Shown in pieces: positions 1,735 through 44,400 of a stretch of 64,000 nucleotides of DNA. A program made the position numbers and the translations under genes. The notes under the pieces are model-generated. The model saw nothing but the letters and a program-made list of their open reading frames with translations, was not told where the DNA came from and ran no database searches. This stretch comes from a virus: the IMG/VR virus record IMGVR_UViG_3300021387_002242, positions 2,864 through 66,863 of that record, one strand, 5' to 3'. How positions within the stretch are numbered: position 1 is the stretch's first letter; the number at the start of each line of letters is the position of its first letter.

Positions 1735-1810
1735 GTTTTTCTCCTTTCTGCCCTGCCATCATCAGCACCCGTGGGGCGGTTCGGGTGGACGGCCCGGAGG
1801 CCGTTTCGGC

Positions 1811-2086
1811 TTATCGTCCGCAAACAACCATGATTGCCGCTGCCATTCTGTCCATCCCTGCAGCTACCAGCGCATCAACCTTGATGCTTTGGCTCACACG
1901 CTCGATTGTCTGATTCAGGCTTTCGGTGTGGAATCCGTTGATTCCGTTGAACTGCTTCTTCAGCTTTCCGTCCGTGTCGATGTCCTTGTCCTCGAATGCC
2001 CAGTAACCATCAGCGGCTCCCATGTTCTCCGCCTTGCAGATCGTGAAGCGCCTTCCGACTTCGATGTATTCAGTAACCTTTTTCAT
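1811..2086 (-). CDS. hypothetical protein
   Basis: Start moved to an internal ATG (MKKVTEYIEV...) preceded by the strong RBS aaaggagagag. Confidence 0.45.
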   Translation of the reverse strand: MKKVTEYIEVGRRFTICKAENMGAADGYWAFEDKDIDTDGKLKKQFNGINGFHTESLNQTIERVSQSIKVDALVAAGMDRMAAAIMVVCGR

Positions 2087-5741: not shown

Positions 5742-6230
5742 ATGGATTATTTGAAGGAAATGCACGAGTTGTGCGAAACCGTCTCCAAGGCCATGGTAAC
5801 GGCCAACGAGAAAATCAGGGCTGCAGGAGGCAAGCTCTCCACCAGCGACCTGGACTATGTGGACAAGCTCACCCACACCCTGAAATCCATCGAGACGACT
5901 ATCGCCATGAAGGAAGCCGAGATGGACGATGGCTACAGCGAGCGTGGCTCTTACCATGACGGTGGCTCTTACCGGAGCTATAACCGGGGCATGAGGGGCT
6001 ACTCCCGCGACGGTGGCAGCTATGACGACGGCAGCTACGACAGCCGTAGCTATGCCCGTGGTCGTGGCCGTTACGCGAATCGTGACAGCATGGGCCGCTA
6101 TTCCAATGACGGGTATTCCCGTGATGGCGACATGATGGAGGATTTGCACGAGCTGATGGACAAAGCGCCCGATGATCGGACGCGCCAGGAGTTCAAGAAT
6201 TTCATCGATAAGATGAAGCAGATGAACTAA
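5742..6230 (+). CDS. RGG/SY-rich low-complexity protein (CotG-like, spore-coat-like)
   Basis: Central repeats GYSERGSYHDGGSYRSYNRGMRGYSRDGGSYDDGSYDSRSYARGRGRYANRDSMGRYSNDGYSRDGD flanked by helical ends; RBS aggaaggaggataagcATG. Confidence 0.5.
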   Translation: MDYLKEMHELCETVSKAMVTANEKIRAAGGKLSTSDLDYVDKLTHTLKSIETTIAMKEAEMDDGYSERGSYHDGGSYRSYNRGMRGYSRDGGSYDDGSYDSRSYARGRGRYANRDSMGRYSNDGYSRDGDMMEDLHELMDKAPDDRTRQEFKNFIDKMKQMN

Positions 6231-6234
6231 AAAC

Positions 6235-6275
6235 AAACCCGCGTAGGCTTGAATGCTTACGCGGGCATTTTTCAC
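6235..6275. terminator. bidirectional rho-independent terminator
   Basis: acccgcgtaggcttgaatgcttacgcggg hairpin with a T-run on the plus side and an A-run on the minus side; separates the convergent + cargo operon from the - accessory operon. Confidence 0.5.
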
Positions 6276-6625
6276 TCGATCAGGGTCGTCCAATCAATGT
6301 CAAGGATTTCCCCGATTTTCATGAGCGTGGTGGTTTTTGGTTTGAATTTGCCGTATTCCCAATATTGGTACTGCTGGACCGGAACACCGAGAGCGTCAGC
6401 CATCATCTGCTGGGTGAATTTCTTATCAACACGCACTTCTGCGAGTTTGGTGTGCGCACGAGTGAACGGAGAAATCCTGTTTGTGGATGACTGTTCGTAC
6501 CATTCGACTACACCAGAAACGCTGTCAATCCAATCCCGGAACTGCTGCACATTCTTGGCGGTGACTTTAGCGTAGAATTCGGATTCGTTGTCCAGCTTGA
6601 CAGAGAAAATATAGTGTCTTTTCAT
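6272..6625 (-). CDS. XRE-family HTH protein with an N-terminal extra domain
   Basis: C-terminal QQMMADALGVPVQQYQYWEYGKFKPKTTTLMKIGEILDIDWTTLIE is an HTH_XRE fold. Confidence 0.5.
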   Translation of the reverse strand: MKRHYIFSVKLDNESEFYAKVTAKNVQQFRDWIDSVSGVVEWYEQSSTNRISPFTRAHTKLAEVRVDKKFTQQMMADALGVPVQQYQYWEYGKFKPKTTTLMKIGEILDIDWTTLIE

Positions 6626-6667
6626 TTGTTCACCCCTTCTGAATTATCGCACAGACCCCACGAAAAG

Positions 6668-7534
6668 TCAACCCACAACCCCGGGCATAATCAGGTTCAC
6701 GGCTTTACCTGCCTGACTGGCTGCCGTGACTATCAATCTCTTGTCGTTCCGCAATGCCTTAATCCAGCTATGGATGTATGCGGCATTGTTTCTGACAGAA
6801 CTATCCGTTTCAAGACCTAGCACATTCATGATCGTAGCGCTGCCCATTTCTGCGACAAGCTCCTCCTTGCTATAGGATTCATCCCGGAAGTGCGTCCCGT
6901 CTTTGATGCGCTTCAAGCGTGAGCTGTGCCCTGTCGAATGGGTCAGCTCGTGGAACGCAGTGGCGTAGTATTCAGCCTCGCCACGGAACTGCTCACGCAA
7001 CGGGAGGACAACCTTGTCCAGGAAGGGAGAGTAGTATGCACGGCCTTGATGTTCATGCTCGACGACTACACCGGAACGGGCAGAATAATCAGCGATCACG
7101 TTCTCGGCTTTTTCAACCGGGTCAAAATCACGAAGGACTTCCTCGTAGTGCTTCGGCTTCAACCCTTCGCAATCGTCGATGTGGAACACGTTCGAGTATT
7201 GCAGGAACGGGATCTGGTCGATGATCGGCTCCCCGTCTGTGCCAAGGACAGCCGCGCCCTTCTCGTTTACCCGGGGCTTCGGTAACATCTTGAAGAACAC
7301 AACGATCTTCGACTTTTCACCCTTCTTTACACGGCCACCTTCTTCCTTACACTGATACCAGGTCAGGTATTCACCCGGAGTTTCAAGCAGCAACTGGTTC
7401 AACAGGCTGTACGGCTTGCCGGTGACACGCTTGATCGCCCAGCTTCCAGCACCCGTCCAAGGGCGATTCCAAGGGATGTCGCCCTGCTCCAGTATCGCAA
7501 TGATTCTATCTGTCACCATTTTATAAACGTCCAT
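6668..7534 (-). CDS. ardC: ArdC-like anti-restriction protein (ssDNA-binding N-domain plus HExxH metallopeptidase)
   Basis: N-terminal DIPWNRPW motif (ArdC-N/DUF1738) and C-terminal FHELTHSTGH zincin motif. Confidence 0.75.
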   Translation of the reverse strand: MDVYKMVTDRIIAILEQGDIPWNRPWTGAGSWAIKRVTGKPYSLLNQLLLETPGEYLTWYQCKEEGGRVKKGEKSKIVVFFKMLPKPRVNEKGAAVLGTDGEPIIDQIPFLQYSNVFHIDDCEGLKPKHYEEVLRDFDPVEKAENVIADYSARSGVVVEHEHQGRAYYSPFLDKVVLPLREQFRGEAEYYATAFHELTHSTGHSSRLKRIKDGTHFRDESYSKEELVAEMGSATIMNVLGLETDSSVRNNAAYIHSWIKALRNDKRLIVTAASQAGKAVNLIMPGVVG

Positions 7535-7784
7535 GCGGCAACCCCTTTCTAAGCGCCCCAGAGGGGCTTTGTGGCGGCTTGTTGGATTCGGTCGAAGAAG
7601 TTATCACGCGGCAGGTGAAGCGCCCAGAGAGGCGCATGTGGAGCGATAAACGCAATCCATCATTTTAGCTTTTTAATTCCATATTTATCACAATCGTACC
7701 ATTCACCTTTGATACAGCAGCGATAGCCAAAGATAGCTCCAGCGGCTTTCGGATAAGGATGTCCCTCAATCACGGGTTCAAGTC

Positions 7785-8204
7785 TTAGCTCCAAGATGTT
7801 TCAGCCCTCCTTTTCTCGTCGGGGCGGGATGTCCAACAGCGCCAACGAATACCATAGTCATTAGCCATAGCAGTCACTACTTCAAGAAGCTGATTTCTGA
7901 CAGTTACAAAATGAATCACTATAACAATACGATCATTTGCGGTGATTAACACATCTCTCAGCAGCCCAACAATGACATCAGGCTTGTCGTTATCTTCAAG
8001 CCATACGATGCTACCATCTGGCAAAGCCACCACTTCCTCCAGCGTCATCACGCGCGGCTCCTGCGCTTTCAGCAGCGCGAGGGCATCTGTCATCGGCGCG
8101 ATAAACCCGCCTTTTGATTCGCATTCAATCTTATACGGGCACGAATCATCACACCCTTTAATGCAAGTTTCCAACCACTTGATAACCTTCTCCACATTAG
8201 GCAT
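7785..8204 (-). CDS. Cys-rich paralog A1 (KVIKWLE...ALALLKAQEP N-module plus QEPRVMTLEE...WTSRP C-module)
   Basis: One of five paralogs; start moved to MPNVEKV with RBS ggagga. Confidence 0.45.
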   Translation of the reverse strand: MPNVEKVIKWLETCIKGCDDSCPYKIECESKGGFIAPMTDALALLKAQEPRVMTLEEVVALPDGSIVWLEDNDKPDVIVGLLRDVLITANDRIVIVIHFVTVRNQLLEVVTAMANDYGIRWRCWTSRPDEKRRAETSWS

Positions 8205-8475
8205 TTTCATATTCCTCCATCGCAGATTCGTAAAAGTTATCAAACGGTTCCATCTCTCCGTTCATGTGCCAGTTAGCAACTCCAAGCCCCGCTCCGTATA
8301 GATCGTCAAAATATGACTTGAAAGCATAAAGGGCATTCAGCATAGCGAGGGCATCTGTTGCTAATTCTCGTGAACAGTTTAATGTTTCTATCCCCCAATA
8401 CGGGCAGTTTTTCATACACCCCGAACCTGTTGCATGTGCTTCCAGACCCTTGATAACCTTCTCCCTGTTAGGCAT
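8197..8475 (-). CDS. Cys-rich paralog A2 (KVIKGLE...AMLNAL)
   Basis: Paralog of 7785-8204 and 32868-33170. Confidence 0.45.
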   Translation of the reverse strand: MPNREKVIKGLEAHATGSGCMKNCPYWGIETLNCSRELATDALAMLNALYAFKSYFDDLYGAGLGVANWHMNGEMEPFDNFYESAMEEYENA

Positions 8476-8776
8476 TCCACTTCACCTTCCTTCTACAGTT
8501 ATGGCAGTAATTCTCCCCATATCCTATATCTATCAAGCAGTTCCCGCATTGCCATGCCGTGCTTGACCGCTTGCAATCTGGTACATAGTGCATGATCGGC
8601 TTCACCGGCTCCTGCGTTTTCAGCAGTTCAAGGGCATCAGCCATCAACTGCGTATTACATGCTATGGCCTTACCATCTACATCATAGGGACAGCCGTCGC
8701 ATGGCCTGGTATTTTGGTTGAGCATAGTTTGAGTGCAACAAGCCAACCCAGAAATCACTTTTTCAAGTTCGTTCAT
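8468..8776 (-). CDS. Cys-rich paralog A3 (KVISGLACC...LELLKTQEP plus a C-terminal Zn-ribbon)
   Basis: Paralog; C-terminal CGNC...CHNC. Confidence 0.45.
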   Translation of the reverse strand: MNELEKVISGLACCTQTMLNQNTRPCDGCPYDVDGKAIACNTQLMADALELLKTQEPVKPIMHYVPDCKRSSTAWQCGNCLIDIGYGENYCHNCRRKVKWNA

Positions 8777-9183
8777 ATCGTACCCCCTAACGCGCTGTAC
8801 AGCGCTGATATTACGTTTGCAGCTTTCCCGTTCCCGAAGAATTCCTGGCGCATAGAAACTACCTTATAGCGATTGTGTAAGAACTCCTTGTCCTGGGATA
8901 TCTTTGTGGGCGAGTAGTCACATTTGAACTCCCGGCAAATAGCAGGACGCACGCTGTAGATCGAACATTTACGCTTCACGTTATCCCTGAAAAAACAGGT
9001 CACGTCAAAGTCCGCTGACACCATCACGTTATGCCTTTCCTTGATGTTGTTAGCCTTGACGTACTTGTGAATACGGCGAAGGTCTTCTGGGCTTACCGGG
9101 AGGAAATCCGAGCAGCACTCACCGCAGTTCGAACAGCGGCCGTGGTCGGTGAAGTCGGTGACGCCGGCAGCGTCGCGCAGCAT
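8773..9183 (-). CDS. YkgJ/UPF0153-family Fe-S (CxxCxxCC) protein
   Basis: CSNCGECCSDF ... CFF ... CREFKC pattern of the 'zinc/iron-chelating domain' family; start set at the ATG right after the upstream stop. Confidence 0.55.
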   Translation of the reverse strand: MLRDAAGVTDFTDHGRCSNCGECCSDFLPVSPEDLRRIHKYVKANNIKERHNVMVSADFDVTCFFRDNVKRKCSIYSVRPAICREFKCDYSPTKISQDKEFLHNRYKVVSMRQEFFGNGKAANVISALYSALGGTI

Positions 9184-9187
9184 ATCG

Positions 9188-9409
9188 TCAATCGAGCCTA
9201 CCACTTGCACCACCCCCGTCCTCAATGTTCGCCTCGCCGGTAAAGATGAATCGGCTGTATTCCTTGCGGTTGTTGCGATCTTCGAGCCAAACTACCAGCT
9301 CAAACAGGTCAAGGTCATTAGCGACTACTTGCACACCGTTGATGTCGAGCATGTTTGTGCGCCCGGTGTCGCGCACTTTGAGAATCTGATCACGAACATT
9401 GCTGGTCAC
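9188..9409 (-). CDS. hypothetical protein
   Basis: GTG start with RBS aaaggggg. Confidence 0.4.
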   Translation of the reverse strand: MTSNVRDQILKVRDTGRTNMLDINGVQVVANDLDLFELVVWLEDRNNRKEYSRFIFTGEANIEDGGGASGRLD

Positions 9410-9426
9410 GATAACGCCCCCTTTCA

Positions 9427-9582
9427 GTCATACAGCCCAAGGCTGCGGTTATAGCGTTCTTCACGCTTCAGGTCGAGGTATTCCTGGTATTCTGACTGAG
9501 CCAGCACGTCCCAATCTTCATAATCGAAACCAGCAAATTGCCAGTCCCACCAATGCTTAAGCTCTGACTTTGTGTCTTTCAT
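9427..9582 (-). CDS. hypothetical small protein (51 aa)
   Basis: MKDTKSELKHWWDWQFAGFDYEDWDVLAQSEYQEYLDLKREERYNRSLGLYD; strong RBS gaaaggagcggaacacATG; below the track cutoff. Confidence 0.35.
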
Positions 9583-9596
9583 GTGTTCCGCTCCTT

Positions 9597-9782
9597 TCAG
9601 ATAGCGTCATAGTTGATCTTGTGGGTATTTGAGGAATAGATCAGAGCACCGGTCGTGACGTTCTTAATAGCTGTGACGGCGGGGTTCGTAGCAAGCGCCA
9701 CGATGCCGGAAAGGCCCAGCTTGAAAACCCCTGATTCCTGGATTCCATCCTGCAGGAAGAATGCCTCAATCATTTTTATCAC
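9597..9782 (-). CDS. hypothetical small protein
   Basis: RBS agaaaggtgataaaaATG. Confidence 0.35.
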   Translation of the reverse strand: MIKMIEAFFLQDGIQESGVFKLGLSGIVALATNPAVTAIKNVTTGALIYSSNTHKINYDAI

Positions 9783-9837
9783 CTTTCTGCCCGATTGGGC
9801 TGCCCACGTAAAATGCCCACGGATGGGCGATAGACTT

Positions 9838-10167
9838 TCAGAATTTGCGGGAGATAAGCTCCATCAATTCATGCGCAGCGGTTAGCAAACTGTCGCCCGT
9901 AATACATACGACGTAAAGTAGACCATAGGGGTCTGCAACGTCAGGGCGCTCCGTTTCCCATACAAAGAAATATTCTTCGCCAGGTGTCAAAATGAATCTT
10001 TCACAATCCCAGGGATTGAACTCCTTGACAATCTCGTCGGTCAGCTTGCTAAATGTGATAAGAATATCCTTACGCCGTCCGTAAGAGCGCACGAGCTTTT
10101 CTAATTCGATGGCGATATGGTAGAGGCTTTCTTGACGATTCGTTGTAACGTTGTCGTTGCTCATCAT
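9838..10167 (-). CDS. hypothetical protein
   Basis: Start moved to MMSNDNV with RBS gaaaggagaatc. Confidence 0.4.
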   Translation of the reverse strand: MMSNDNVTTNRQESLYHIAIELEKLVRSYGRRKDILITFSKLTDEIVKEFNPWDCERFILTPGEEYFFVWETERPDVADPYGLLYVVCITGDSLLTAAHELMELISRKF

Positions 10168-10193
10168 GATTCTCCTTTCTGCCCGTTGGGCGG

Positions 10194-10580
10194 TCAAACG
10201 TCGATGCCTACAGAGTGGTAGGCGTAGAATCCGTTGTTGCGAGTGAAAACCTTGAACCACTGGGTGAACGGTTTGCCGGTGCAATCGTAGGGGCTGCAGA
10301 TCGGCGGGTAGCTGAAGAAGTCCTGGAAGAACTCGGCAGCTTGCTCAACGGAAGTGAAGTCATCAGGCAGCCTTACAAGTTCGATGTACCCGTCGTAGTC
10401 GCCCTTGATGACCTTGCGCTCATAACCGACTTCACGGTGTGAAAACTGGCGCAGCGCCCGCTTGCAGGTCTTGATGAAATCTCGTGCTCGTTCGGGGTTA
10501 TCCACCCGATCAACTTCCTTCTCGAGCATGCGCATCAGGGTGAGGTTGATGCGATAATCGGTAGCGTTTGCGATGTACAT
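10194..10580 (-). CDS. hypothetical protein
   Basis: 128-aa ORF with coding-like composition. Confidence 0.4.
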   Translation of the reverse strand: MYIANATDYRINLTLMRMLEKEVDRVDNPERARDFIKTCKRALRQFSHREVGYERKVIKGDYDGYIELVRLPDDFTSVEQAAEFFQDFFSYPPICSPYDCTGKPFTQWFKVFTRNNGFYAYHSVGIDV

Positions 10581-10596
10581 TCTCCAGTCTCCTTTC

Positions 10597-10767
10597 TTAT
10601 CGCGCCAGGAACGCGGCTGCGATGATCTGAGCGCCGGCGCTGAACATTGCCTGGGTGATTTTGCCCTGTGCCAGCATGGCGTGGTTAGCGGCGCTGGTCT
10701 CCTCGATGGACTTCATCTCGAGCATCATCCGGATGGCCTTCTCGTATTCCTTGACCTGGTTCTTCAT
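10597..10767 (-). CDS. hypothetical small protein
   Basis: MKNQVKEYEKAIRMM...; RBS aggggaaaacc; first gene downstream of promoter copy 2. Confidence 0.35.
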   Translation of the reverse strand: MKNQVKEYEKAIRMMLEMKSIEETSAANHAMLAQGKITQAMFSAGAQIIAAAFLAR

Positions 10768-10799
10768 GGTGGTTTTCCCCTTTCCCTTGATCTGAGACA

Positions 10800-10846
10800 A
10801 TATTACCATAGAAGTATTGCAAAGTCAAGCTAAGTGTATGATAACT
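10800..10846 (-). promoter_or_regulatory. conserved leftward promoter/operator element, copy 2 (TTGACT-N17-TAATAT)
   Basis: Reverse complement reads agttatcatacacttagcTTGACTttgcaatacttctatggTAATAT. Confidence 0.6.
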
Positions 10847-10858
10847 GAGAAAGGCTTG

Positions 10859-11818
10859 TCACGCGATAGCCCCAGCCTGGTCAAGGACATGCAGCATACC
10901 TTCGATTTTATCACGGCAAGCGATTACTTCAAGCCAGGGGCGCGGGATTGCGCCGTAGCCGTAGTAAAGGCCAGCCAGACCGCCAGCAACGGCAGCTACG
11001 GTATCAGTGTCGTCCCCAAGGTTGACGGCGGCGAGAAGGGCCGCTGAGAGCCTGTGAGAGCATGCCAGGCACCACACAGCCGCTTCGAGCGTGTCCACGA
11101 CATAGCCAGAGCTTTTGATCGCGGTGACTGGGAGAGCGGCAAAGGCTTTCACATCGAACAGACGGCGATACTGGTACAGTTCTGACTTATCGTCGAGGCA
11201 AGCGGTATAGAACGCGACGCCATCATCGATACCACGCTGCAGCGCGTCGATCAAACGACCAGGATGATTCACAATTGACTTTGCCAGGAAGTAGTACAGA
11301 CCACAACCAATCCTGGAACGAAGATGGGCATGGGTGAGAGCACTGACGCGGTCGATGGTTGAAATAGCCACACGATCTGGAAGCTCTCTGTCCAGGCACC
11401 AGAGCACAACTGGCATGATACGCATAAGGCTACCGTTCCCGTTGTCTGCTTCGTTTCGGCTGCCACACTGTGTAACATCCGCTCCATCGATGTATCTCTG
11501 GATTGCTTCTCTCGTTCCGCGCCCAACTCCGAAGGTAAAGCCATAAGGTGTGAACGAACCGTCCTGAAGCCAACGACAAAAATTGCACATGATATCATCC
11601 AGATCAATAACACCACGTCGTTTGATGCTTTCAACGGTCGCAATGGTCATGGACGTGTCGTCAGTCCAAGTCCCAGCCGGAAGCGAATACGTGCCGAAAC
11701 CACGCATGTCTCCGACTGAATTCATGGCAAGCTGGGAGCGGTTCATCATCTCAACCGGGCGACCCAGAGCGTCGCCAACGACGACGCCCATGATTGCAGA
11801 TTTCCACATGTTCAGCAT
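10859..11818 (-). CDS. ADP-ribosylglycohydrolase (ARH/DraG family)
   Basis: N-terminal GVVVGDALGRPVE and C-terminal LGDDTDTVAAVAGGLAG motifs of the ADP-ribosylglycohydrolase family. Confidence 0.8.
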   Translation of the reverse strand: MLNMWKSAIMGVVVGDALGRPVEMMNRSQLAMNSVGDMRGFGTYSLPAGTWTDDTSMTIATVESIKRRGVIDLDDIMCNFCRWLQDGSFTPYGFTFGVGRGTREAIQRYIDGADVTQCGSRNEADNGNGSLMRIMPVVLWCLDRELPDRVAISTIDRVSALTHAHLRSRIGCGLYYFLAKSIVNHPGRLIDALQRGIDDGVAFYTACLDDKSELYQYRRLFDVKAFAALPVTAIKSSGYVVDTLEAAVWCLACSHRLSAALLAAVNLGDDTDTVAAVAGGLAGLYYGYGAIPRPWLEVIACRDKIEGMLHVLDQAGAIA

Positions 11819-12283
11819 TTACCATGCTCCCTTCAGATCGTCCGGGAATTTGAATTCGTAGCTGTCGTTCAACGCTTCAACCAGAATGTCACGGTTCAGG
11901 TGGAAGCGTTCGTAGCCTTCGGAGATGGTGTAGAAATACCCCGAGCTTGGCGGCACGATAGGCCGGCCGGCGTTCATGATGTAAACCATCGCCCTGGCAT
12001 TGAAGCGCTTGCTGCCGGGAGTATGCACGCTTACGGACAGGTACTGCTTCCGGTAATACTTCGGATAACCCTCATAGCGGTCGAGACGCTGCTCGTCACG
12101 TTCGGAGATCGCCCAGACGATCACTGGAACTTCGGAGCCTTTACACGGCTCGATGGTGGCATGCACTCGGAATACGAGCTTCCAGTCCTTGAGGGTTGCC
12201 TTGCCGATGACATGCGCGTCCGGGCACCGGAACGCCATCTGAGCGACAGAGAGATTGCTGCCATAAGCCACATAATACTTCAT
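11819..12283 (-). CDS. gamma-glutamyl cyclotransferase-like (AIG2/GGCT fold) protein
   Basis: N-terminal YVAYGSNLSVAQM motif; stop overlaps the ARH start (ATGA). Confidence 0.7.
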   Translation of the reverse strand: MKYYVAYGSNLSVAQMAFRCPDAHVIGKATLKDWKLVFRVHATIEPCKGSEVPVIVWAISERDEQRLDRYEGYPKYYRKQYLSVSVHTPGSKRFNARAMVYIMNAGRPIVPPSSGYFYTISEGYERFHLNRDILVEALNDSYEFKFPDDLKGAW

Positions 12284-12286
12284 AGA

Positions 12287-12499
12287 TTAGTCCTTCCTTT
12301 CAATGGTCATGATAGATTCTTTTGGAGCGATTGGTTCATCGGTGACGTAGAACTCAACGCCGTCAAAATGTTCTGGGTCGAGCTGGACTTCACCGTTGTG
12401 ATAAGCGTCCGAGACGCGCCGGTGGGCTTCGGACGGACTTCTGGCTTCCACGGTGACGATGCGCCGCAGGGTTTCGGTGATGGCGACTTTATACAGCAT
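12287..12499 (-). CDS. hypothetical small protein
   Basis: 70-aa ORF between GGCT and amidoligase. Confidence 0.4.
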   Translation of the reverse strand: MLYKVAITETLRRIVTVEARSPSEAHRRVSDAYHNGEVQLDPEHFDGVEFYVTDEPIAPKESIMTIERKD

Positions 12500-12542
12500 G
12501 GACTTTCTCCCTTCACAGGGCTGGGAATAAACCCAGCCCAGA

Positions 12543-13523
12543 TTAACATGCAGCAGTGGTAGGCTGGTCGACTTTCTGCCTCCAGGCGCAATTCCCGCTC
12601 AGATTCCGCAACAGGATATCCCGCGCCGTCTCGAACTCCTTACCGATGAAGCCCAACCGGAGCAGCCAGCACCGGAAAGCGTACTTCTCGTTCTCGGTCT
12701 GCTGGGGCTTTGGGCTGGCATACTTGACTTCCTTCGCCAACTCGCTCATGGCAATGCACAACTGAATGTAGGCCTTCAGCTCGCCGGCGTGGATGTTGCC
12801 GTACTTGCCATCGTGGGGGTCGGCGAACTGGAACAGCCGGAACTCAATGGTGCCTTTGGTGAAGGAAGCGTGGAGGTTGAGCATATGGTAGCGGCTGTCG
12901 TTGTAGTGCTGATTGCGCCCGACGTTGCAGCGCTGGGAAATATACCAGATATCAGCGAGGGCATCCATCGTCTGCGGCTTCTTGGTGTTGATGTCGGCCA
13001 GGAAGCGAGGGTCGATCACGCGGCAGTAATCGCGGGTACGATTTCGGTCGATACGAATGGCCCGACCGATCTGGCTCTCATGCGCAGCCATGATGTTGAC
13101 GAGGTTTCGCAGCGTCTTAGCGTCGTGATTCCGGCCATCAAGCCCATTCAAGCCGACGTGAATGTGGATTCCGCAGCCGCGCTTCGGGCAGGACTTCGCG
13201 CCATTCTTGCGCAGCTCTCGCAGGAGACCCTGCAACGTTCTGATGTCGTTGTACACCAAGATCGGGGTAACGAGTTCGCACCGCTCGTCGTCCGGACCGT
13301 GGATGGAAACGTCTCGGCTGAACTTCCACTCACGCCCCTGGGCATCGTAGGCGCTCCACGTCATGTACCCGTTGCGGCTGGCGGTGTACTCGTAGCGATT
13401 GGTGCCGAGAAACTCGGCGGCCAACTTGGCAGCGTTCTGACGGGTGATGTTGTTCATCTCGACTTCGACGCCAAAGGTCTGCTGCTTCATGGCGGCGATC
13501 TGATGCAGAGTGGATTCTTTCAT
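12543..13523 (-). CDS. amidoligase (glutamine-synthetase-like COOH-NH2 ligase, Amidoligase_2-like)
   Basis: N-terminal FGVEVEM motif and size match the Amidoligase_2 family; start moved to MKESTL with RBS aaaggagcg. Confidence 0.5.
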   Translation of the reverse strand: MKESTLHQIAAMKQQTFGVEVEMNNITRQNAAKLAAEFLGTNRYEYTASRNGYMTWSAYDAQGREWKFSRDVSIHGPDDERCELVTPILVYNDIRTLQGLLRELRKNGAKSCPKRGCGIHIHVGLNGLDGRNHDAKTLRNLVNIMAAHESQIGRAIRIDRNRTRDYCRVIDPRFLADINTKKPQTMDALADIWYISQRCNVGRNQHYNDSRYHMLNLHASFTKGTIEFRLFQFADPHDGKYGNIHAGELKAYIQLCIAMSELAKEVKYASPKPQQTENEKYAFRCWLLRLGFIGKEFETARDILLRNLSGNCAWRQKVDQPTTAAC

Positions 13524-13561
13524 GGGTAACGCTCCTTTCCGGTGGCTCATTTGATAGTGTG

Positions 13562-13610
13562 ATGTTACATTGTTTATGCTGCAAAGTACACTAAGAAACA
13601 GCTAAATGGG
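13562..13610 (-). promoter_or_regulatory. degenerate copy 7 of the conserved leftward promoter element
   Basis: agctaaatggg ... -35-like TGTACT, N17, TAACAT on the minus strand, just upstream of the amidoligase operon. Confidence 0.35.
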
Positions 13611-13671
13611 ATTGTTGTTTGTGTGTCCTTTTGATGTTACAGACTGTAACACTTTGGGAGCGCACCCCGTA

Positions 13672-13812
13672 TCACCCGACAAAGTGAACGGGGCAGCGGG
13701 CGATGAAATCGCCCAGGGTTTCTTCTTCTTCCATCTCGAACTCGTTGTCGATCTCGGTATAACCGAAGTCGAATGAATCCAGCTTCTCGTAGTACAGATC
13801 GCTCTTTGTCAT
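13672..13812 (-). CDS. hypothetical small acidic protein (46 aa)
   Basis: MTKSDLYYEKLDSFDFGYTEIDNEFEMEEEETLGDFIARCPVHFVG with RBS aaaggggttgcc; lies downstream of promoter copy 3. Confidence 0.3.
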   Translation of the reverse strand: MTKSDLYYEKLDSFDFGYTEIDNEFEMEEEETLGDFIARCPVHFVG

Positions 13813-13861
13813 TGTTGGCAACCCCTTTCTTGGTCGGTGGTGTGTTCCTCTTTCTGGGGTA

Positions 13862-13908
13862 ATATTACAATAGAACTATTGTAAAGTAAAGCTAAATGAA
13901 TGATAACT
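13862..13908 (-). promoter_or_regulatory. conserved leftward promoter/operator element, copy 3 (TTTACT-N17-TAATAT)
   Basis: Reverse complement reads agttatcattcatttagcTTTACTttacaatagttctattgTAATAT. Confidence 0.55.
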
Positions 13909-14229
13909 AAATAGAGAATGGGAGGAAGCGATAGGTGGCTGCCGGGAATGAAAAAACGCCCCGGCGAATGCCAGGACGCAGACATAAGAAAAAGGCCGGT
14001 TGCCCGACCTTATCCCTTCGCTCAATGCGAAGTCCAGATATTGCGGCAGGATTCTCACCTGCACGAAGCCACCACAGCTTCAAATCAGCATCTTCCATAT
14101 AACCGCACAGATGTTGGTTAGTCATTCTGTGGGCCGTCATGGATAAACGGGATTTCACCGTTTCACGGCTATTATGCGTCTGCTTCCGCCACGCAATACC
14201 CCCGCGCAAGCGCGGCCCCTCCAACTACT

Positions 14230-14485
14230 ATACCCAGAGAACAGGCCCGTGGGTTTCTTAATTGGATTGCTTGGATTATAGCATATCCCATCGCGGATGT
14301 CAACTCAATGATGTGCCATGTGCGAGGATTACCCATACATGACCCTAGTTTTACCCTAAACGCCAGTCAATCTGTGTCTAGTTGTGTCGATTCACCCGCA
14401 TATTATAAAGGAAGGAATATAGACAGCAATAGCCAGTATATGCCACAAATTACAGTACCGAACATCAAGCGGTTAAAAGAGTATA
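14230..14485. other. candidate attP region (AT-rich, repeated ACCCTAA motifs) on the 3' side of int
   Basis: Non-coding AT-rich block next to the integrase 3' end; ttttaccctaaacg and gaccctaaataataccctaatc repeats are candidate arm-type sites. Confidence 0.3.
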
Positions 14486-14515
14486 CAAGAAAAAGCCCCG
14501 TAAATACGGGGCTTC
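14486..14515 (-). terminator. rho-independent terminator of int
   Basis: agccccgtaaatacggggct hairpin followed by a T-run on the minus strand. Confidence 0.5.
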
Positions 14516-14552
14516 TGGCGCTTTGAAAGATGATTTGACCCTAAATAATACC

Positions 14553-15722
14553 CTAATCAGCGTTTTTTTGCAGGTACTTGGACAACTTGGATGCTCCATC
14601 CTTGCCCGCGTCTTCGGTGTAAGCCATATAGACATCCAGGGTCATGCTCGCCTTTTTATGGCCCAGGTTGTGCTGTACGGTTTTGACGTCCATACAGGAC
14701 CGCAGAGCGGCAACAGCATAAGAGTGCCGGAGGTCATGCGGGTGTAGCTCTGGAATCCCTATATCCATACCAACGCGGCGAACACAGGTAAAAATGGTCT
14801 TCTCACCGTGGGCTTTCCCATCACGCTGACGGAACACCAGGTCGTGACTCAACTCATCATCACACCAGTCTCCACCCTTTGCTATGCGCTGTTCCGCTTG
14901 CTTGCGGCGTTGATCGCGCAGTATATCTATAGCTTCCTTTGGGAGATGAATCAAACGCTCCTCCTCATATTTCGGCGGGGTTATGCGCTGAATACTAATG
15001 GACTTAGCATGGAGCTGACGCTGGACAAACATTGTGCCGACATCGAAATCAACGTCAGACCAGCGCAGCCCGCGCACTTCTCCGATTCGCAACCCGGTAT
15101 AGAGCATGAAAATCAGCTCGTTCCCGTACCTGGTTTTATTGGCGGCAGCGATGAAGTCTTGGAACTGTGTCCGCTCGATGATGTGGAACTTCTTAACCTT
15201 GCCACGGGAGACGGACACAAGTGCTGCCGGGTTTTCTTTAATCAGCCTGGATTCGATAGCGCAGTTTAACGCGGTTCTCAAGATGCGGCAGTAATTGCTG
15301 ATGGTAACCTGGGACAGACCACGATCTTGCATGGACGAAACCATACGGCGAACGTGGATAGGGGCGAGTTTAGACAGCTTCACGTCACCAATGGTCGGCT
15401 TGAAGTTATGGTTCAATATAGATTTGTACTTGATAACTGTGCGCTCGGAGTTTTCGCCCTGATAATCGGCAATCCAGATGTCCAACCATTGCGAGACAGT
15501 CATTTTTGACGGTTCACGCCAGATGCCGGAATCCAGCTCGTGTAGCTGTGTGCGCAGCTTTGTGGTAACTTCTTTCTCGGTTTTGGCATAAACGGAGCGC
15601 TGCCGGCCATCGGGAGTGGTGTACCTGGCTTCCCAACGGCCATCGGAGCGTTGACGGATGGAACCCATGCCGTTATTCGACCGGGAGTTCTTCTTCTTCG
15701 GCAAAATAACGCCACCTTTCAT
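14553..15722 (-). CDS. int: tyrosine-type site-specific integrase
   Basis: N-terminal arm-binding-like GSIRQRSDGRWEARY, core-binding and catalytic domains with the R...HDLRH...Y pattern (HPHDLRHSYA...LGH...Y). Confidence 0.85.
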   Translation of the reverse strand: MKGGVILPKKKNSRSNNGMGSIRQRSDGRWEARYTTPDGRQRSVYAKTEKEVTTKLRTQLHELDSGIWREPSKMTVSQWLDIWIADYQGENSERTVIKYKSILNHNFKPTIGDVKLSKLAPIHVRRMVSSMQDRGLSQVTISNYCRILRTALNCAIESRLIKENPAALVSVSRGKVKKFHIIERTQFQDFIAAANKTRYGNELIFMLYTGLRIGEVRGLRWSDVDFDVGTMFVQRQLHAKSISIQRITPPKYEEERLIHLPKEAIDILRDQRRKQAEQRIAKGGDWCDDELSHDLVFRQRDGKAHGEKTIFTCVRRVGMDIGIPELHPHDLRHSYAVAALRSCMDVKTVQHNLGHKKASMTLDVYMAYTEDAGKDGASKLSKYLQKNAD

Positions 15723-15724
15723 CG

Positions 15725-16138
15725 TTAATGTTGGGCCAGACTTTCCAGATCGTCACGATACATGTCGATAGCCATTTGTGCGAACTCCTGCGTTACGTCG
15801 AAATAGTCGGCCAATGCCCACGGCGACCAGTAGCCCAGATGAATGGCGCGAAGGACATCATGGTATGGCATCAATAACTCTACAGCGCGTTTATTCGCTT
15901 TGTACTCGCATTTCTCCCAGTTATCGTACAGGGAATAGACGTTGTAGAAGCTTCCAGTCTCTATGTGCCCCAGCTCGTGAGCTAGGGCACATTTTAATTC
16001 CGCATCGCTTTCAAACTTATCAAGGTCTACAAAAACATACCCAGTCTGAAAAACAGCCGCCTTCAATGCCCGCGTGTGTATTTCCACAACCTCAAACCCA
16101 TGAGATGCGATTCTGTCGTAAAGCTCGTAAGTTTTCAC
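15725..16138 (-). CDS. ImmA/IrrE-family metallopeptidase (anti-repressor protease)
   Basis: HELGHIETGSF HExxH motif; adjacent to and co-oriented with the repressor. Confidence 0.7.
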   Translation of the reverse strand: MKTYELYDRIASHGFEVVEIHTRALKAAVFQTGYVFVDLDKFESDAELKCALAHELGHIETGSFYNVYSLYDNWEKCEYKANKRAVELLMPYHDVLRAIHLGYWSPWALADYFDVTQEFAQMAIDMYRDDLESLAQH

Positions 16139-16153
16139 GGCTTTACGCCCTCC

Positions 16154-16546
16154 CTATTGTCGGTTACGTCTGGCAATAATTATGTCTGCCATGGCATTAA
16201 GATCAACTAATTCATCTCTGCTAAAATCTTTCGTTTTCTTATGTACAGCAAATTCGAGCGATTCACGGGTGAGTGGACTTTCTTCTGTTACAAGAGCCTG
16301 GACACCTTCATGCTCTTGTTGGGATTGTGCATCTGGATTGTCGTATGACGCTGGGACCGGTTCGTACCCAAGTATAACTCCGTTCGTTACGCCGAAATAG
16401 TCAGACAGCTTAGTCAGTCTTTCACCGCGCGGGTCTTTCTTCTGGTTCCACCAGTCACTAATAGTGGGCCGAGACACTCCAATGCTAATCGCCAACTGCT
16501 TCTGCAAAATACCTTTTCTATCAGATAATTCCTTTACGCGGTTCAT
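16154..16546 (-). CDS. cI-like XRE-family repressor
   Basis: N-terminal HTH (LQKQLAISIGVSRPTISDWWN); divergent from cro. Confidence 0.7.
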   Translation of the reverse strand: MNRVKELSDRKGILQKQLAISIGVSRPTISDWWNQKKDPRGERLTKLSDYFGVTNGVILGYEPVPASYDNPDAQSQQEHEGVQALVTEESPLTRESLEFAVHKKTKDFSRDELVDLNAMADIIIARRNRQ

Positions 16547-40571: not shown

Positions 40572-41162
40572 GGCAACACAATGCACCCGATACGTGTTAA
40601 TATGCAAATGTGCACATCCGGGGCCACGTCGTCCCGGTGCATTATGCGAGCGGTAGATGAATAGTCCCGCTCACAGGTTGTGCTACCCGGGGACTTTCCC
40701 AAAGCGGTGCTCGGGAGCGGGATTTAAACAAAGAGTGTGGGGCTTTACAGTTTTCACCCATACCGCCTCCTTTTCACGTTGGTGGGGACGGGTGAGGCAA
40801 CAAGAAAACAACGCGACACCGGAGCGCGTAATCTCCGGAGACATGCCGTTGCTGGACAGCTTGCGCCCAGGGGAACCGCCTGGACTGGCTCCCGGTTCGA
40901 CACCGGGGACGGCACCACGTGACTTCTGGCATGGGATTTGTCATTGGTCACCTCCTTTCCAGGCTATAAGCCGAGCCGCATACTTCTTGTTGGGCTTTGC
41001 AGATTCACCAGCAAGCGGTATGGGTGCCCGCCTGTCGTCACCGTGTGGTTTGCCGGGACGATCAAAGGCGGGCTAAAAGGGTAAGAGCTTTGCACGCGAG
41101 CCGAGAGGCAGCGAACCACGCAAGGACATTTATACAGGCCAGAGTAAAGATCTGGCCACGTG
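40572..41162 (+). ncRNA. candidate large structured non-coding RNA (ROOL/GOLLD-like?) immediately upstream of the tRNA
   Basis: About 590 nt, GC-rich with many short complementary segments and no credible ORF (the track ORF 40657-41076 is P/G/R-rich and not coding-like); abuts a tRNA in a prophage, the characteristic context of ROOL/GOLLD RNAs. Confidence 0.3.
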
Positions 41163-41238
41163 GGAGATTAGCTCAGTAGGTAGAGCAGCAGGCCGTTAAC
41201 TTGCGCGTCCGGGGTTCAAGTCCCTGATTTCCCGCCAG
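41163..41238 (+). tRNA. tRNA, probably Asn (GTT anticodon), with encoded CCA
   Basis: Cloverleaf folded by hand: acceptor GGGAGAT/ATTTCCC, D-arm GCTC-AGTAGGTA-GAGC, anticodon arm GCAGG-CCGTTAA-CTTGC, T-arm CGGGG-TTCAAGT-CCCTG, discriminator G plus CCA. Position 33 is C rather than U, which is unusual. Confidence 0.65.
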
Positions 41239-41497
41239 CCCAGTATACAATAGGGTTCCAAGTGTAATGCGCCACTTGAACAAAAAGCACGGGTGTCCCG
41301 GGATAATGCTTGTATGCGGCAAAAGCCCGGGCCGATCTTCAGACGTTGTGGGGTAAACAGCGTCCACCAACACAATGCCGGGTAACGCGAGGGTGTTTAC
41401 ACCAGCCCGCGAGGGTGGTAGTCGCGCCGGATTGTTTAGGCGGTTAATGGCGTACAGAGATACGCCGACCGCCTTTTTTCATGCTGTAGGAGGCTCC

Positions 41498-41610
41498 ATG
41501 AAAATCATACAGAAACCAACAGAGCAGCTTATACCTTACGCGGCAAATGCCAAGCTGCATGATGAAACGCAGATCGCAAATGTAGCGAACAGCATAAAAA
41601 ATGCCCCCGA
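41498..41610 (+). pseudogene. 5' remnant of a ParB-like nuclease-domain gene, truncated by a cassette insertion
   Basis: MKIIQKPTEQLIPYAANAKLHDETQIANVANSIK is about 80% identical at nt level to the 5' end of 41986-43272, then diverges into the cassette terminator. Confidence 0.5.
41528..41599. repeat. direct repeat (about 72 bp, about 80% identical, 26-nt perfect core) with 42016-42087, flanking the inserted cassette
   Basis: aagctgcatgatgaaacgcagatcgc core is identical in both copies. Confidence 0.5.
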
Positions 41611-41618
41611 AGGGGGGC
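41593..41618 (-). terminator. terminator of the leftward cassette
   Basis: cccccgaagggggg hairpin with a T-run on the minus strand. Confidence 0.4.
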
Positions 41619-41620
41619 GG

Positions 41621-41896
41621 TTAGCCAACGTTGGGAAGCCGGTAGGGGTAATGCCCGTACAAAGCACGGTAGGCTTCGGTGTATGGCGCGTAGCCGTGGC
41701 CTTCCAGCAGGTACTGCCGGGTCTTTTCCAGCAGGGCGATCATGAACTCGCGGTGCATGGTGACCGTAACCCGCGTCCGAACCTTCATGGGTTCGACTTC
41801 GTACATACCGAAGTCGGTCATGCCGTACTTCTCGGCGACATTGAACAGGGCGGCAAGGGCATCACGGTGAATGTTGAAGGTGATGGTAGACGTCAT
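41621..41896 (-). CDS. hypothetical protein (cassette cargo)
   Basis: 91 aa, downstream of promoter copy 4. Confidence 0.45.
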   Translation of the reverse strand: MTSTITFNIHRDALAALFNVAEKYGMTDFGMYEVEPMKVRTRVTVTMHREFMIALLEKTRQYLLEGHGYAPYTEAYRALYGHYPYRLPNVG

Positions 41897-41927
41897 GGTA
41901 ACAACCCCTTTGCTTTTTGTTGTAAAC

Positions 41928-41975
41928 AGTATAGCATAAAAAATGATGCAAAGTCAAGCTAAGAGTATGATAAAC
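41928..41975 (-). promoter_or_regulatory. conserved leftward promoter/operator element, copy 4 (TTGACT-N18-TATACT)
   Basis: Reverse complement reads gtttatcatactcttagcTTGACTttgcatcattttttatgcTATACT. Confidence 0.55.
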
Positions 41976-41985: not shown

Positions 41986-43272
41986 ATGAACATAGTCAGT
42001 ATGCCAACGGTAGACCTCATACCGTATTCCGCAAACGCGAAGCTGCATGATGAAACGCAGATCGCTAACGTTGCGAACTCAATAAAACGCTTCGGGTGGC
42101 AACAGCCCATAGTGGTAGACGACAACAATGTGGTCGTCATAGGCCATTGTCGTCTGCTTGCGGCGAAGCGGCTGGGACTACAGGAAGTCCCAGTGACGGT
42201 TGCCAGCGGTTTGACGGATGAAGAAATCCGAGAACTGCGAATCGCAGACAATAAGACCAATGAAAGCGCCTGGAACTGGGAAATGCTGGAACAGGACAGG
42301 GCTGGTCTTGCGTTTGACGGCTTCGAGTTCGAGTGGGTGAATCCGGACGGTGAGGAACCGGCATTCGAGGAACCAGAGGCCATAGAGGATAACTTCGACG
42401 AAGAAGATATTCCCGAAGAATCCGACATCAAATACGGCGATGTTTTCCTGCTCGGCCGGCACAGATTGGTCTGCGGTGACAGCACGAATATTGACGACGT
42501 AAAGAAGCTGATGGACGGAGCACAGGCTGATCTGTTCCTGACAGACCCGCCGTATAACGTGGACTACCATGGCAGCACTGGCATGACGATAGCGAACGAC
42601 AGCATGGAGGATAGCGCGTTCAGAGCGTTCCTCACGGATGCTTTCAGTAACGCAAACCTGGTCATGCGTCCCGGGGCTGCTATTTATATATGGCATGCAG
42701 ACAGTGAGGGCTTCAACTTCCGCGCCGCTATGCGTGAAGTAGGCTGGAAGCTGCGCCAGACACTAATCTGGGTAAAGAATGCCCCGGTGCTAGGCCGCCA
42801 GGATTACCTCTGGAAACATGAGCCGGCACTTTATGCGTGGAAGGAAGGAACTCACTACTTCACCAGCGACAGGACAAACAAAACAGTCTTTGACGACAGA
42901 ATCGACATAAAGAAACTCAAGAAGGAAGAAATGAGAGCGCTTCTTGAGAAAATCTTTGCCGACAGAGTGCTGACGACGGTCTTGTACGAGGACAAGCCGC
43001 TGGTGAACGATCTCCACCCAACCATGAAACCGATTCGGCTCATGGCGCGGTTGATTGCCAACAGTTCACAACCCGGGTGGCGGGTGCTTGACTTGTTCGG
43101 TGGCAGTGGTTCAACGCTGATGGCTTGCGAGCAGCTCGGGAGAACATGCTACACTATGGAACTCTCCCCGACTTACTGTTCCGCAATCATAAAGCGCTAT
43201 ATCAAGTTCACCGGCGAGGATGTGTTCTTACTCCAGGACGGAGAAAAAATACAATATATCCCGGAGGATTGA
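41986..43272 (+). CDS. ParB-like nuclease domain fused to an N6-adenine/N4-cytosine DNA methyltransferase
   Basis: N-terminal ParB-N (IPY.ANAK.H...IANSI..FG..QPIVV...VV.GH.RL.AAK.LG); C-terminal DPPY (LTDPPYN) and FGGSGST AdoMet-binding motifs. Confidence 0.75.
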   Translation: MNIVSMPTVDLIPYSANAKLHDETQIANVANSIKRFGWQQPIVVDDNNVVVIGHCRLLAAKRLGLQEVPVTVASGLTDEEIRELRIADNKTNESAWNWEMLEQDRAGLAFDGFEFEWVNPDGEEPAFEEPEAIEDNFDEEDIPEESDIKYGDVFLLGRHRLVCGDSTNIDDVKKLMDGAQADLFLTDPPYNVDYHGSTGMTIANDSMEDSAFRAFLTDAFSNANLVMRPGAAIYIWHADSEGFNFRAAMREVGWKLRQTLIWVKNAPVLGRQDYLWKHEPALYAWKEGTHYFTSDRTNKTVFDDRIDIKKLKKEEMRALLEKIFADRVLTTVLYEDKPLVNDLHPTMKPIRLMARLIANSSQPGWRVLDLFGGSGSTLMACEQLGRTCYTMELSPTYCSAIIKRYIKFTGEDVFLLQDGEKIQYIPED

Positions 43273-44061: not shown

Positions 44062-44400
44062 TTAGGCGGCGGGGGCGATCTGAGTGTCGCTGTAGACGAA
44101 GTAGGACTGAATCCGGGTGCCCTTCTTGGTGGTCGGGTCGGCAACCTCGACCTTGAAGGTGGCCTCGCTGGTGTGTATCACCATACGGCCCAGCGCTTGC
44201 CAACCGGCCCAAGTGTGATACTCTTCTTCGACACCGGCAGCTTTCGCGGCGGCATCGACGATCTCGGCGTTAGCGGCCTGGACCTTGATCCAAGCCCACG
44301 CGGCGCGAAGCGCGTCCGCAAACGTGGCAGCGGCTTTCTTGCTGGCTTTGCGATACAGGCTCCAAGCCTTGTACATCAGCTTCGACAGATCGTACTTCAT
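44062..44400 (-). CDS. hypothetical protein
   Basis: 112 aa; first gene after promoter copy 5; RBS gaaaggagaaacc. Confidence 0.4.
   Translation of the reverse strand: MKYDLSKLMYKAWSLYRKASKKAAATFADALRAAWAWIKVQAANAEIVDAAAKAAGVEEEYHTWAGWQALGRMVIHTSEATFKVEVADPTTKKGTRIQSYFVYSDTQIAPAA

Follow-up and report, generated by a model that had tools for sequence, protein, structure and literature searches.

Does a tightly packed run of phage genes encoding several unrelated enzymes form one system, or a set of separate ones that happen to lie side by side? We addressed this question for a minus-strand block of about 7 kb in a 64,000-nt stretch of viral DNA (IMG/VR record IMGVR_UViG_3300021387_002242, positions 2,864 to 66,863; hereafter the window, with all coordinates counted from its first letter). 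The block encodes, among others, an amidoligase, a gamma-glutamyl cyclotransferase (GGCT)-like protein, an ADP-ribosylglycohydrolase (ARH), an ArdC-like anti-restriction protein and a helix-turn-helix (HTH) protein, and the original prediction had read it as a single operon for one multi-enzyme counter-defence or host-modification module. The results described here lead us to a different view, to which we give a probability of roughly 60%: the interval between the phage integrase and the HTH gene is a hypervariable accessory ('moron') slot, filled with independently promoted and separately acting cassettes, and not one system.

The block itself was confirmed. Between 6272 and 13812 the list of open reading frames (ORFs) shows an unbroken co-directional run of 17-18 ORFs on the minus strand, tightly packed and with several start/stop overlaps, and a separate gene caller, applied to an assembly of this phage from a different metagenome (ENA ERZ12302816), gave matching calls for 13812-6272. 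The domains that had been named from the sequence also held up when profile searches were run, with Pfam backing every one of them (Amidoligase_2, GGACT/AIG2, ADP_ribosyl_GH, CxxCxxCC, ArdcN and HTH_3) and PHROGs in agreement.

The clearest evidence on how these genes belong together came from gene neighbourhoods in other phages. In a set of 82 viral loci centred on relatives of the amidoligase (58-78% identical), a GGCT gene lay within 2 kb downstream in 79 (79 of the 80 with downstream sequence; two of the three exceptions were truncated contigs), so the amidoligase-GGCT association that had been noticed in the window was well supported. A DpnD-like gene was found between the two in 71 of the 82 loci, in the order amidoligase, DpnD, GGCT in 69 of these 71. 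By contrast with this trio, ARH, ArdC and HTH genes were present in 1/82 amidoligase loci, and none of the 82 had YkgJ or Cys-rich genes. The reciprocal counts gave the same picture: around the ARH, the trio was found in 3/80 viral loci, 0/80 loci from species-representative genomes and 0/80 metagenome loci, and around ArdC, among 80 viral loci, the trio was present in two and an ARH in one. For the viral contigs the ARH scan depended strongly on the query, since a single sequence recovered 0 loci, a two-sequence alignment 3, and the 23-sequence alignment used here 80. Conservation of gene order in related phages, chosen beforehand as the test on which the single-module claim could fall, therefore fails beyond amidoligase-DpnD-GGCT. 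Conservation as a multi-gene unit is confined to the trio, to which the YkgJ, ArdC, HTH and ARH genes do not belong, and because the ARH-, ArdC- and amidoligase-centred counts conserve the trio alone, the integrase-to-HTH interval is best described as a hypervariable accessory slot.

The slot can also be recognised directly in the relatives. In the loci with the closest ArdC relatives (67-75% identity), an integrase is followed by about 6 kb and then ArdC, with an HTH gene next in most of them, and the contents of the interval differ from one locus to another. Locus L008 lacks the equivalent of 7660-10580, and L093 has a nucleotidyltransferase and PnuC instead of the middle of the block. In L008, L093, L253, L173, L174 and L176 a homologue of the HTH gene follows ArdC or closes the region, and the integrase adjoins the block in all assemblies of the phage.

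The trio, for its part, ranks among the accessory modules that are most widespread and best conserved in human-gut and rumen Firmicutes phages. A protein search returned about 8,000 homologues, and among the matches listed identity was 65-78%, even where other phage proteins had diverged much further. Duplication is the rule among its relatives, with two amidoligase paralogues in 76/82 loci and two GGCT paralogues in 62/82, together with DUF4314, and in the common architecture (for example L039, 8710-12830, and L171, 6704-11538) DNA methyltransferases precede the module and the terminase follows it. In most gut Firmicutes phages, including Ca. Heliusvirales records, the module comprises a divergent amidoligase paralogue without a Pfam match, Amidoligase_2, a DpnD-like protein, two tandem GGCTs and DUF4314; it is not taken up in the paper on Heliusvirales. 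In the window each gene of the trio is present once and DUF4314 is missing, and the trio is integrase-adjacent with the ARH appended. A second amidoligase, a second GGCT or a DUF4314 gene elsewhere in the window was considered and rejected, since none was found.

A second line of evidence came from promoters. The 19-nt core of a conserved element has six matches in the window, all on the minus strand (2416-2434, 10815-10833, 13877-13895, 41944-41962, 44461-44479 and 48325-48343), against 0.01 expected by chance in a pattern search allowing three mismatches, and each is followed 65-85 nt downstream by a Shine-Dalgarno sequence and an ORF. The element, near-identical in its six copies, consists of a conserved box (GTTATCATxCAxTTAGC), TTGACT, 17 nt and then TAATAT, and occurs in the related phages L008, L093 and L253 as well. 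Inside the block, one copy (P1, 13844-13914, minus strand; match 13877-13906, with its -35/-10 site at 13878-13906) has the box, a -35-like TTTACT and then TAATAT, and is the predicted promoter of a 46-amino-acid (aa) ORF and probably of the amidoligase cassette behind it. Another (P2, 10782-10852, minus strand; match 10800-10833, -35/-10 site 10800-10828) reads TTGACT-17-TAATAT with an upstream TG, and as a predicted promoter would start a second transcription unit. Of the two copies on which the single operon had been built, the one at about 10800 is thus a good one; the other ('copy 7', in front of the amidoligase) is a degenerate copy at 13540-13600 on the minus strand, visible by alignment and missed by the three-mismatch search, while the good upstream copy precedes the 46-aa ORF. 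A further promoter-like site, TTGACT-17-GATAAT with an upstream TG (6643-6671, minus strand), precedes the HTH gene, and the block is therefore not a single operon, with at least three sigma-70-like predicted promoters inside it.

These sites divide the block into three predicted units: the 46-aa ORF, amidoligase, DpnD, GGCT and ARH in the first; five small ORFs, a DUF5049 protein, the CxxCxxCC protein, three Cys-rich paralogues and ArdC in the second, which P2 would drive; and the HTH gene alone in the third, presumably from its own promoter. A bidirectional terminator-like hairpin (6234-6265) closes the block and separates it from unannotated cargo genes that run rightward on the plus strand beyond it. 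That such units are mobile is indicated by a moron at 44065-44400, which stands behind another copy of the element in the window and has a homologue inside the accessory slot of L008; promoter-gene cassettes therefore move.

The ORF that heads the amidoligase unit (13672-13812, minus strand) was called by the independent gene caller too; it is acidic, with 13 of its 46 residues D or E, and has no family match and no homologue in the 82 related loci. Between it and the amidoligase, a perfect inverted repeat, TGTTACAGTCTGTAACA (13635-13651, minus strand), was read directly from the sequence. No T-run follows it, and TGTAACA recurs in the degenerate promoter copy. An operator and an RNA hairpin are both conceivable roles for the repeat.

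What the trio might do was approached through its proteins. The amidoligase gene (12543-13523, minus strand) encodes a 326-aa Amidoligase_2 carboxylate-amine ligase (Pfam 6e-49; PHROG 2443, 5e-102) that matches PF12224 with 167.5 bits against a cut-off of 22, over profile positions 2-244 of 245. Its start had been placed at 13550 and is most likely at 13523 instead, where the ATG stands behind GGAAAGGAG. A PDB sequence search with this protein gave nothing significant. For its AlphaFold2 model (predicted local distance difference test score 87, predicted template-modelling score 0.88), the best Foldseek matches were the gamma-glutamylcysteine ligase (gamma-GCL) domain of GshF (3ln7, 1.3e-5), glutamine synthetase, Dop (7oxy) and the gamma-glutamylcysteine synthetase of E. 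coli (1v4g). Residues G18, E20, E22, E83, H120, H122, E227 and R229 are invariant in 27 homologues. The model thus suggests a fold of the glutamine-synthetase/gamma-glutamylcysteine-ligase/PafA-Dop type, and it is structurally closest to gamma-GCL/GshF, glutamine synthetase and PafA/Dop; the likeness to gamma-GCL/GshF, glutamine synthetase and Dop is, however, at the level of the fold only (template-modelling score about 0.44, 8-15% identity), and the phage ligase, at 326 aa, is much smaller. To our knowledge, all characterised members of this fold activate the gamma-carboxylate of glutamate in an ATP-dependent reaction and join it to an amine.

The next gene (12287-12499, minus strand) encodes a DpnD/PcfM-like protein of 70 aa (Pfam 1.7e-17), for which a PDB sequence search gave nothing significant either. 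Set beside the Pup system, DpnD is a folded small protein and not a Pup-like tag. The third gene of the trio (11819-12283, minus strand) encodes a 154-aa protein of the gamma-glutamyl(amine) cyclotransferase fold (GGACT 6e-13, AIG2_2 6e-7; PHROG 2520, 1.6e-38), which reaches 49.9 bits against a cut-off of 22.8 for PF06094. Aligned with human GGCT it conserves the YGSNL motif and keeps the catalytic Glu of LDxxEG, the Glu of LDRYEG falling on that of LDEQEG. Enzymes of the GGCT/GGACT group cleave gamma-glutamyl amides with a free alpha-amine, releasing 5-oxoproline and the free amine.

Because the ligase fold activates the gamma-carboxylate of glutamate and the GGCT fold cleaves such amides, the likeliest chemistry for the pair, as far as models and families can suggest it, is the writing and erasing of a gamma-glutamyl amide. 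The amidoligase would write, at the expense of ATP, a gamma-glutamyl-type amide on some amine, with a protein lysine, a cell-wall or polyamine amine and a small metabolite as candidates; the cyclotransferase would erase or trim what the ligase had written; and DpnD may be an adaptor or partner of the two. Such a pairing mirrors the making and breaking of gamma-glutamyl amides in the gamma-glutamyl cycle.

Directly behind the trio comes the ARH gene (10859-11818, minus strand), which encodes a 319-aa protein of the Tri1/DraG/Lmo0067 type (Pfam ADP_ribosyl_GH 1.4e-69; 235 bits for PF03747). Its PDB matches are Listeria Lmo0067 (8za7, 2e-64), Tri1 (6dre, 9e-41) and DraG (2woe, 2e-26), and the metal-binding residues of this family are conserved in it: D16, D53, D54, D270, T271 and D272 (in GDALG, WTDD and GDDTDT) are invariant in 23 homologues. 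The best NCBIfam models, Tri1 (NF041672) and DraG (TIGR02662), were matched with 169 bits against 490 and 122 bits against 337, both below the equivalog cut-off, which places the protein, by its sequence, as a relative of Tri1 and DraG and a member of neither equivalog; no papers on Lmo0067 were found. Hydrolysis of ADP-ribosyl-arginine is its likely activity, and it would most likely strip ADP-ribose from arginines modified by ADP-ribosyltransferases (ARTs) of host defences, rival phages or toxins. Unlike Tri1 and DraG, it is phage-borne and has no cognate ART, DraT or Tre1 neighbour that tblastn could find. We also considered it as the antidote to an ART encoded in the window itself and set this aside, as tblastn of the window with the two ARTs of L094 gave nothing and none was seen in the block or in the scanned cargo ORFs, only some of the window's ORFs having been profile-scanned.

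The neighbours of the ARH in relatives point to NAD and ADP-ribosylation biology. In L094 (12316-13857) two ADPrib_exo_Tox genes, NAD:arginine ART-like, lie downstream of it; in L093 (6952-8167) and L253 (7952-9167) a cytidylyltransferase-like nucleotidyltransferase and an NMN transporter (PnuC in L093) lie beside it; and in L258 (5206-6267) a Macro-domain protein is encoded next to an ARH homologue. Other homologues are found in plain chromosomal contexts, beside a relaxase, or beside a macro-domain gene.

In the second unit, P2 is followed on the minus strand by five small ORFs, at 10597-10767 (56 aa), 10194-10580 (128 aa), 9838-10164 (108 aa), 9597-9773 (58 aa) and 9424-9582 (52 aa), none of which matched a family in Pfam, PHROGs or NCBIfam; the 56-aa ORF has a 59% identical homologue in L008. 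They are followed by a DUF5049 protein of 73 aa (9188-9409, minus strand; Pfam 4.4e-24; PHROG 8677), with nothing significant in a PDB sequence search, and by a YkgJ-like CxxCxxCC metal-binding protein of 150 aa (8773-9225, minus strand; Pfam 2.5e-11; PHROG 32498, 1e-35), for which a PDB search found no relative. The latter reaches 44.6 bits against a cut-off of 23 for PF03692, with a motif that reads CSNCGECC, so that its assignment to the CxxCxxCC family stands; the Fe-S cluster it had been credited with is an assumption, Pfam describing the family as 'zinc- or iron-chelating'.

Three tandem Cys-rich genes follow on the same strand (8468-8776, 102 aa; 8197-8475, 92 aa; 7785-8204, 139 aa). 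By alignment they are indeed paralogues, as had been proposed, with a common N-terminal domain of about 57 aa, 24-35% identity and the motif EKVIKGLE..C..CPY....DALALLK.QEP. No Pfam, PHROG or NCBIfam model matches this domain. A profile search with it retrieved 2,719 clusters (at 50% identity) at E<=1e-3, which suggests that it defines a large unnamed family of small proteins, and relatives lie in the accessory regions of L093 and L253. The longer members of the family often carry a C-terminal YG..WRCWT.RP motif.

The unit ends with the ArdC homologue (6668-7534, minus strand), a 288-aa protein with ArdcN (2e-21) and MPTase-PolyVal (1e-37) matches and a PHROG annotated as 'anti-restriction protein' (PHROG 7245, 1e-67). 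The alignment with R388 ArdC (6i89/6sna, 1.6e-42) spans the whole protein, with HELTH falling on HEATH so that the HExxH is kept, and the protein would combine a single-stranded-DNA-binding ArdC-N domain with a C-terminal zincin metallopeptidase. Both domains thus align full length with ArdC of the IncW plasmids R388/pSa, and the combination of ArdC-N with MPTase is the classic architecture of conjugative elements; ArdC-N is reported to be frequent in conjugative elements but seldom found among phage-type polyvalent proteins (PMC5512222). By analogy the window protein would protect incoming DNA from restriction. It differs from R388/pSa ArdC in being phage-encoded, and nothing here points to its delivery along with the DNA in the manner of conjugation. 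The block ends with the 117-aa HTH_3 (Xre/Cro-type) protein (6272-6625, minus strand; Pfam 3.6e-10).

Taken as separate cassettes, these genes would sort into the trio as the first, with the ARH an orphan in the window that in relatives stands beside Arg-type ARTs or NAD-salvage-like genes, and the genes behind P2 and the HTH promoter as others. Of the counter-defence role once proposed for the block as a whole, what survives is plausible for two proteins individually, ArdC with its full-length R388 match and HExxH, and the Tri1/DraG-like ARH; the single-system part of the claim does not survive. Several points weigh against our reading or parts of it. The promoters are consensus matches, predicted and without mapped transcription starts, and read-through could still give long transcripts, since the terminator/promoter scan found no terminator between the ARH and P2. 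The close coupling of ARH and GGCT and the recurrence of the four-gene order in five other loci could mean functional coupling. The substrate of the ligase is possibly a carboxylate other than that of glutamate. Finally, counter-defence is not separable from superinfection exclusion or host fitness, a distinction that hinges on expression in the lysogen versus early infection.

That last point leads to the alternative that survives best, which we nevertheless regard as unlikely: that the cassettes serve the lysogen, through superinfection exclusion or envelope modification, with the amidoligase and GGCT modifying the cell wall or a surface receptor, along the lines suggested for the phiEco32 and LUZ24 modules, and the ARH conferring immunity against ADP-ribosylating toxins of competitors. 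A moron position that is putatively proximal to the phage attachment site (attP), together with strong host-type predicted promoters that have an extended -10 and need no phage factor, is what one would expect of such genes, and Tri1 is an immunity protein against an ART toxin of a type VI secretion system (PDB 6dre, NCBIfam naming). The literature likewise treats related modules as agents of peptidoglycan or receptor modification (PMC11945000, PMC11318856). Yet the PADLOC-DB 2.0 defence models matched no protein of the block, generic HTH similarity of the 117-aa protein excepted, ArdC is an invader-side function, and in most phages the trio lies among early and DNA-modification genes just before the terminase and not in a lysogeny slot.

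Nearly as well, and still doubtful, fares the idea that amidoligase, DpnD, GGCT and ARH form a functional cassette, in which the ARH would strip ADP-ribose and the ligase and cyclotransferase would write and erase an amide on the same target, for example so that re-modification is prevented or a lesion inflicted by a defence is mended. The ARH had been described as overlapping the GGCT gene by ATGA; the two in fact abut as TAA-ATG (TAAATG). Outside the window, five diverged phage loci (L008, L093, L253/L254, L255/L256 and L094) have the four genes in this order, and in all of them, as in the window, the ARH lies immediately downstream of GGCT, abutting it or with one small ORF between. Of the contexts of close ARH homologues examined in a large protein collection, 3/6 showed the order, and L008 and L094 show it as well. 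The linked loci have drifted apart (ARH 50-61% identical, amidoligase 56-78%), and by pairwise identity the trio-linked ARHs are not mutual nearest relatives, both of which speak for such a cassette. So does a published analogue, in which R2K.2/R2K.3 ATP-grasp peptide ligases flank an ADP-ribosylglycohydrolase in Firmicutes, an arrangement read as protein modification (Burroughs, Zhang & Aravind 2015, PMC4431377). In both cases, all in Firmicutes and their phages, the gene for an amide or peptide ligase is directly linked to one for an ARH, although the ligase folds differ (ATP-grasp in R2K, glutamine-synthetase-like in the window) and the R2K system has no GGCT or DpnD.

Against a functional cassette stand the counts, with the ARH missing from 81/82 amidoligase loci and the trio missing from 77 of 80 viral ARH loci and from all 80 genome and all 80 metagenome ones, and the neighbours of the ARH elsewhere, which point to NAD and ART biology and not to ligases. 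Moreover, because integrase, Cys-rich paralogues and terminal HTH are common to all the linked loci, these look like one phage lineage with the same integrase-to-HTH slot, for which vertical co-inheritance suffices and is therefore the simpler explanation. The more specific proposal, that the trio and a translationally coupled ARH would, in one lineage of temperate Clostridia phages, be a four-gene 'side-chain editing' cassette acting on one host or phage target to counter ADP-ribosylating immunity, we consider slightly less probable again; if true, it would be a second, independent pairing of a ligase with an ARH after the ATP-grasp case.

It is improbable that the trio modifies nucleotides or DNA, an amino acid being attached to or trimmed from a modified base so as to protect phage DNA from restriction. 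The common architecture does invite the thought, placing the trio right after ParB-N6/N4 and C5 DNA methyltransferases, near a protein with an Nmad4 (nucleotide-modification-associated) domain and before the terminase, but no hydroxymethylase, kinase or glycosylase partner was seen, the trio of the window lies 30 kb from the methylase-like ParB/DUF4417 genes, and the relatives of the ligase fold act on amino-acid or protein carboxylates. Least probable is that the whole block is one integrated multi-enzyme counter-defence system, a reading that the neighbourhood counts have already largely refuted: its genes do all run the same way and lie close together, several of them overlapping at starts and stops, and all identifiable functions fit conflict biology, but gene order is not conserved beyond the trio, at least three predicted promoters lie inside, and close relatives swap the middle of the block wholesale, as L008 and L093 show. 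For annotation, the block should accordingly be catalogued as a hypervariable accessory slot of separate cassettes and not as a new multi-gene counter-defence system.

How much of this is new was judged against described systems. The association of amidoligase with AIG2 in Firmicutes phages and mobile elements is known from computational work (Iyer, Abhiman, Burroughs & Aravind 2009, Mol Biosyst 5:1636, as cited in PMC11318856 and PMC11945000). The window has the same two families in the same order, co-directional and with only the 70-aa DpnD gene between them, and differs from the common Amidoligase_2-GGCT loci in being single-copy and without DUF4314, with the trio moved beside the integrase and an ARH appended. 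In phage records the two routinely appear under the names 'amidoligase enzyme' and 'gamma-glutamyl cyclotransferase', and the Pfam description of PF12224 presumably mentions the association with AIG2 too. A predicted amide ligation pathway with Amidoligase_2 and a GGCT-like protein also characterises the LUZ24/phiEco32-type module, which comprises a COOH-NH2 ligase, Amidoligase_2, a class-II glutamine amidotransferase (GAT-II), an ATP-grasp protein and GGCT and is linked to peptidoglycan or peptide modification (PMC3890496, PMC11945000). Those phages are, however, lytic and have Proteobacteria as hosts, and in Pfam the proteins of our block match no GAT-II, ATP-grasp or COOH-NH2_lig family.

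In the recent 'amidoligase' literature we found no experimental work on the function of Amidoligase_2 or the trio; Klebsiella CfmP, considered as a possible amidoligase experiment, is an ATP-grasp enzyme and irrelevant here. The novelty is modest, and consists in the minimal, relocated single-copy trio, the recurrent ARH extension in one lineage and the integrase-HTH swap-in slot. With its own predicted host-type promoter, and beside a Tri1-like ARH and ArdC, the minimal trio of the window offers a compact test construct. In L008, whose accessory slot is the nearest relative of that in the window, a 208-aa protein beginning MCIICVSPKG is encoded upstream of the amidoligase (about 6202-6828, plus strand), which by eye has an N-terminal-nucleophile/class-II amidotransferase-type start, the family that partners amidoligases in proteobacterial modules; it has no homologue in the window.

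The surroundings of the block are those of a temperate phage, whose hosts are gut or rumen Clostridia. A profile scan identified a holin (345-707), a tyrosine integrase (14553-15722) and an ImmA/IrrE-HTH pair (15725-16546). Megablast of the block against the phage collection gave just three short matches, all within the amidoligase, and megablast of the structural half of the window gave none. The phage has no close relative in the collection, where no portal protein exceeds 50% identity to its own.

Between the integrase and the block we noted a candidate phage non-coding RNA, possibly overlapping attP. Behind a perfect consensus promoter (TTGACA-17-TATAAT, preceded by TG; 14303-14275, minus strand) come about 300 nt in which no ORF is convincing, and two terminator-like hairpins (14011-13992 and 13979-13956). 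The region 13956-14303 folds far better than shuffled sequences (z = -4.1) and is all but confined to this phage, the one exception being a match of 79 nt in L174. It matches no Rfam family even at E<=1, and Rfam at permissive E over 13500-14700 returned terminator-like chance matches only.

Outside the block, three copies of the promoter element lie in the otherwise rightward early/middle region, each with a Shine-Dalgarno sequence and a small ORF behind it, and transcription from the one at 41944 would run antisense into ORF 41375-41962 on the plus strand. A type II hammerhead ribozyme (1747-1811, minus strand; Rfam RF02276, 41.2 bits against a gathering threshold of 37, E 5.5e-5) directly follows a 126-aa minus-strand ORF (1811-2191) and stands a few hundred bases behind the copy at 2416-2434, which is on the same strand. 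The window further carries a phage-encoded tRNA-Asn (GTT) at 41162-41237 on the plus strand and an internal repeat at 41516-41599 and 42004-42087. Four plus-strand genes (41986-43272, 47103-47786, 48344-48883 and 49912-51012) have paralogous ParB_N-type N-termini that match the ParB_N/DUF4417 protein of L094, the last of them over its full length.

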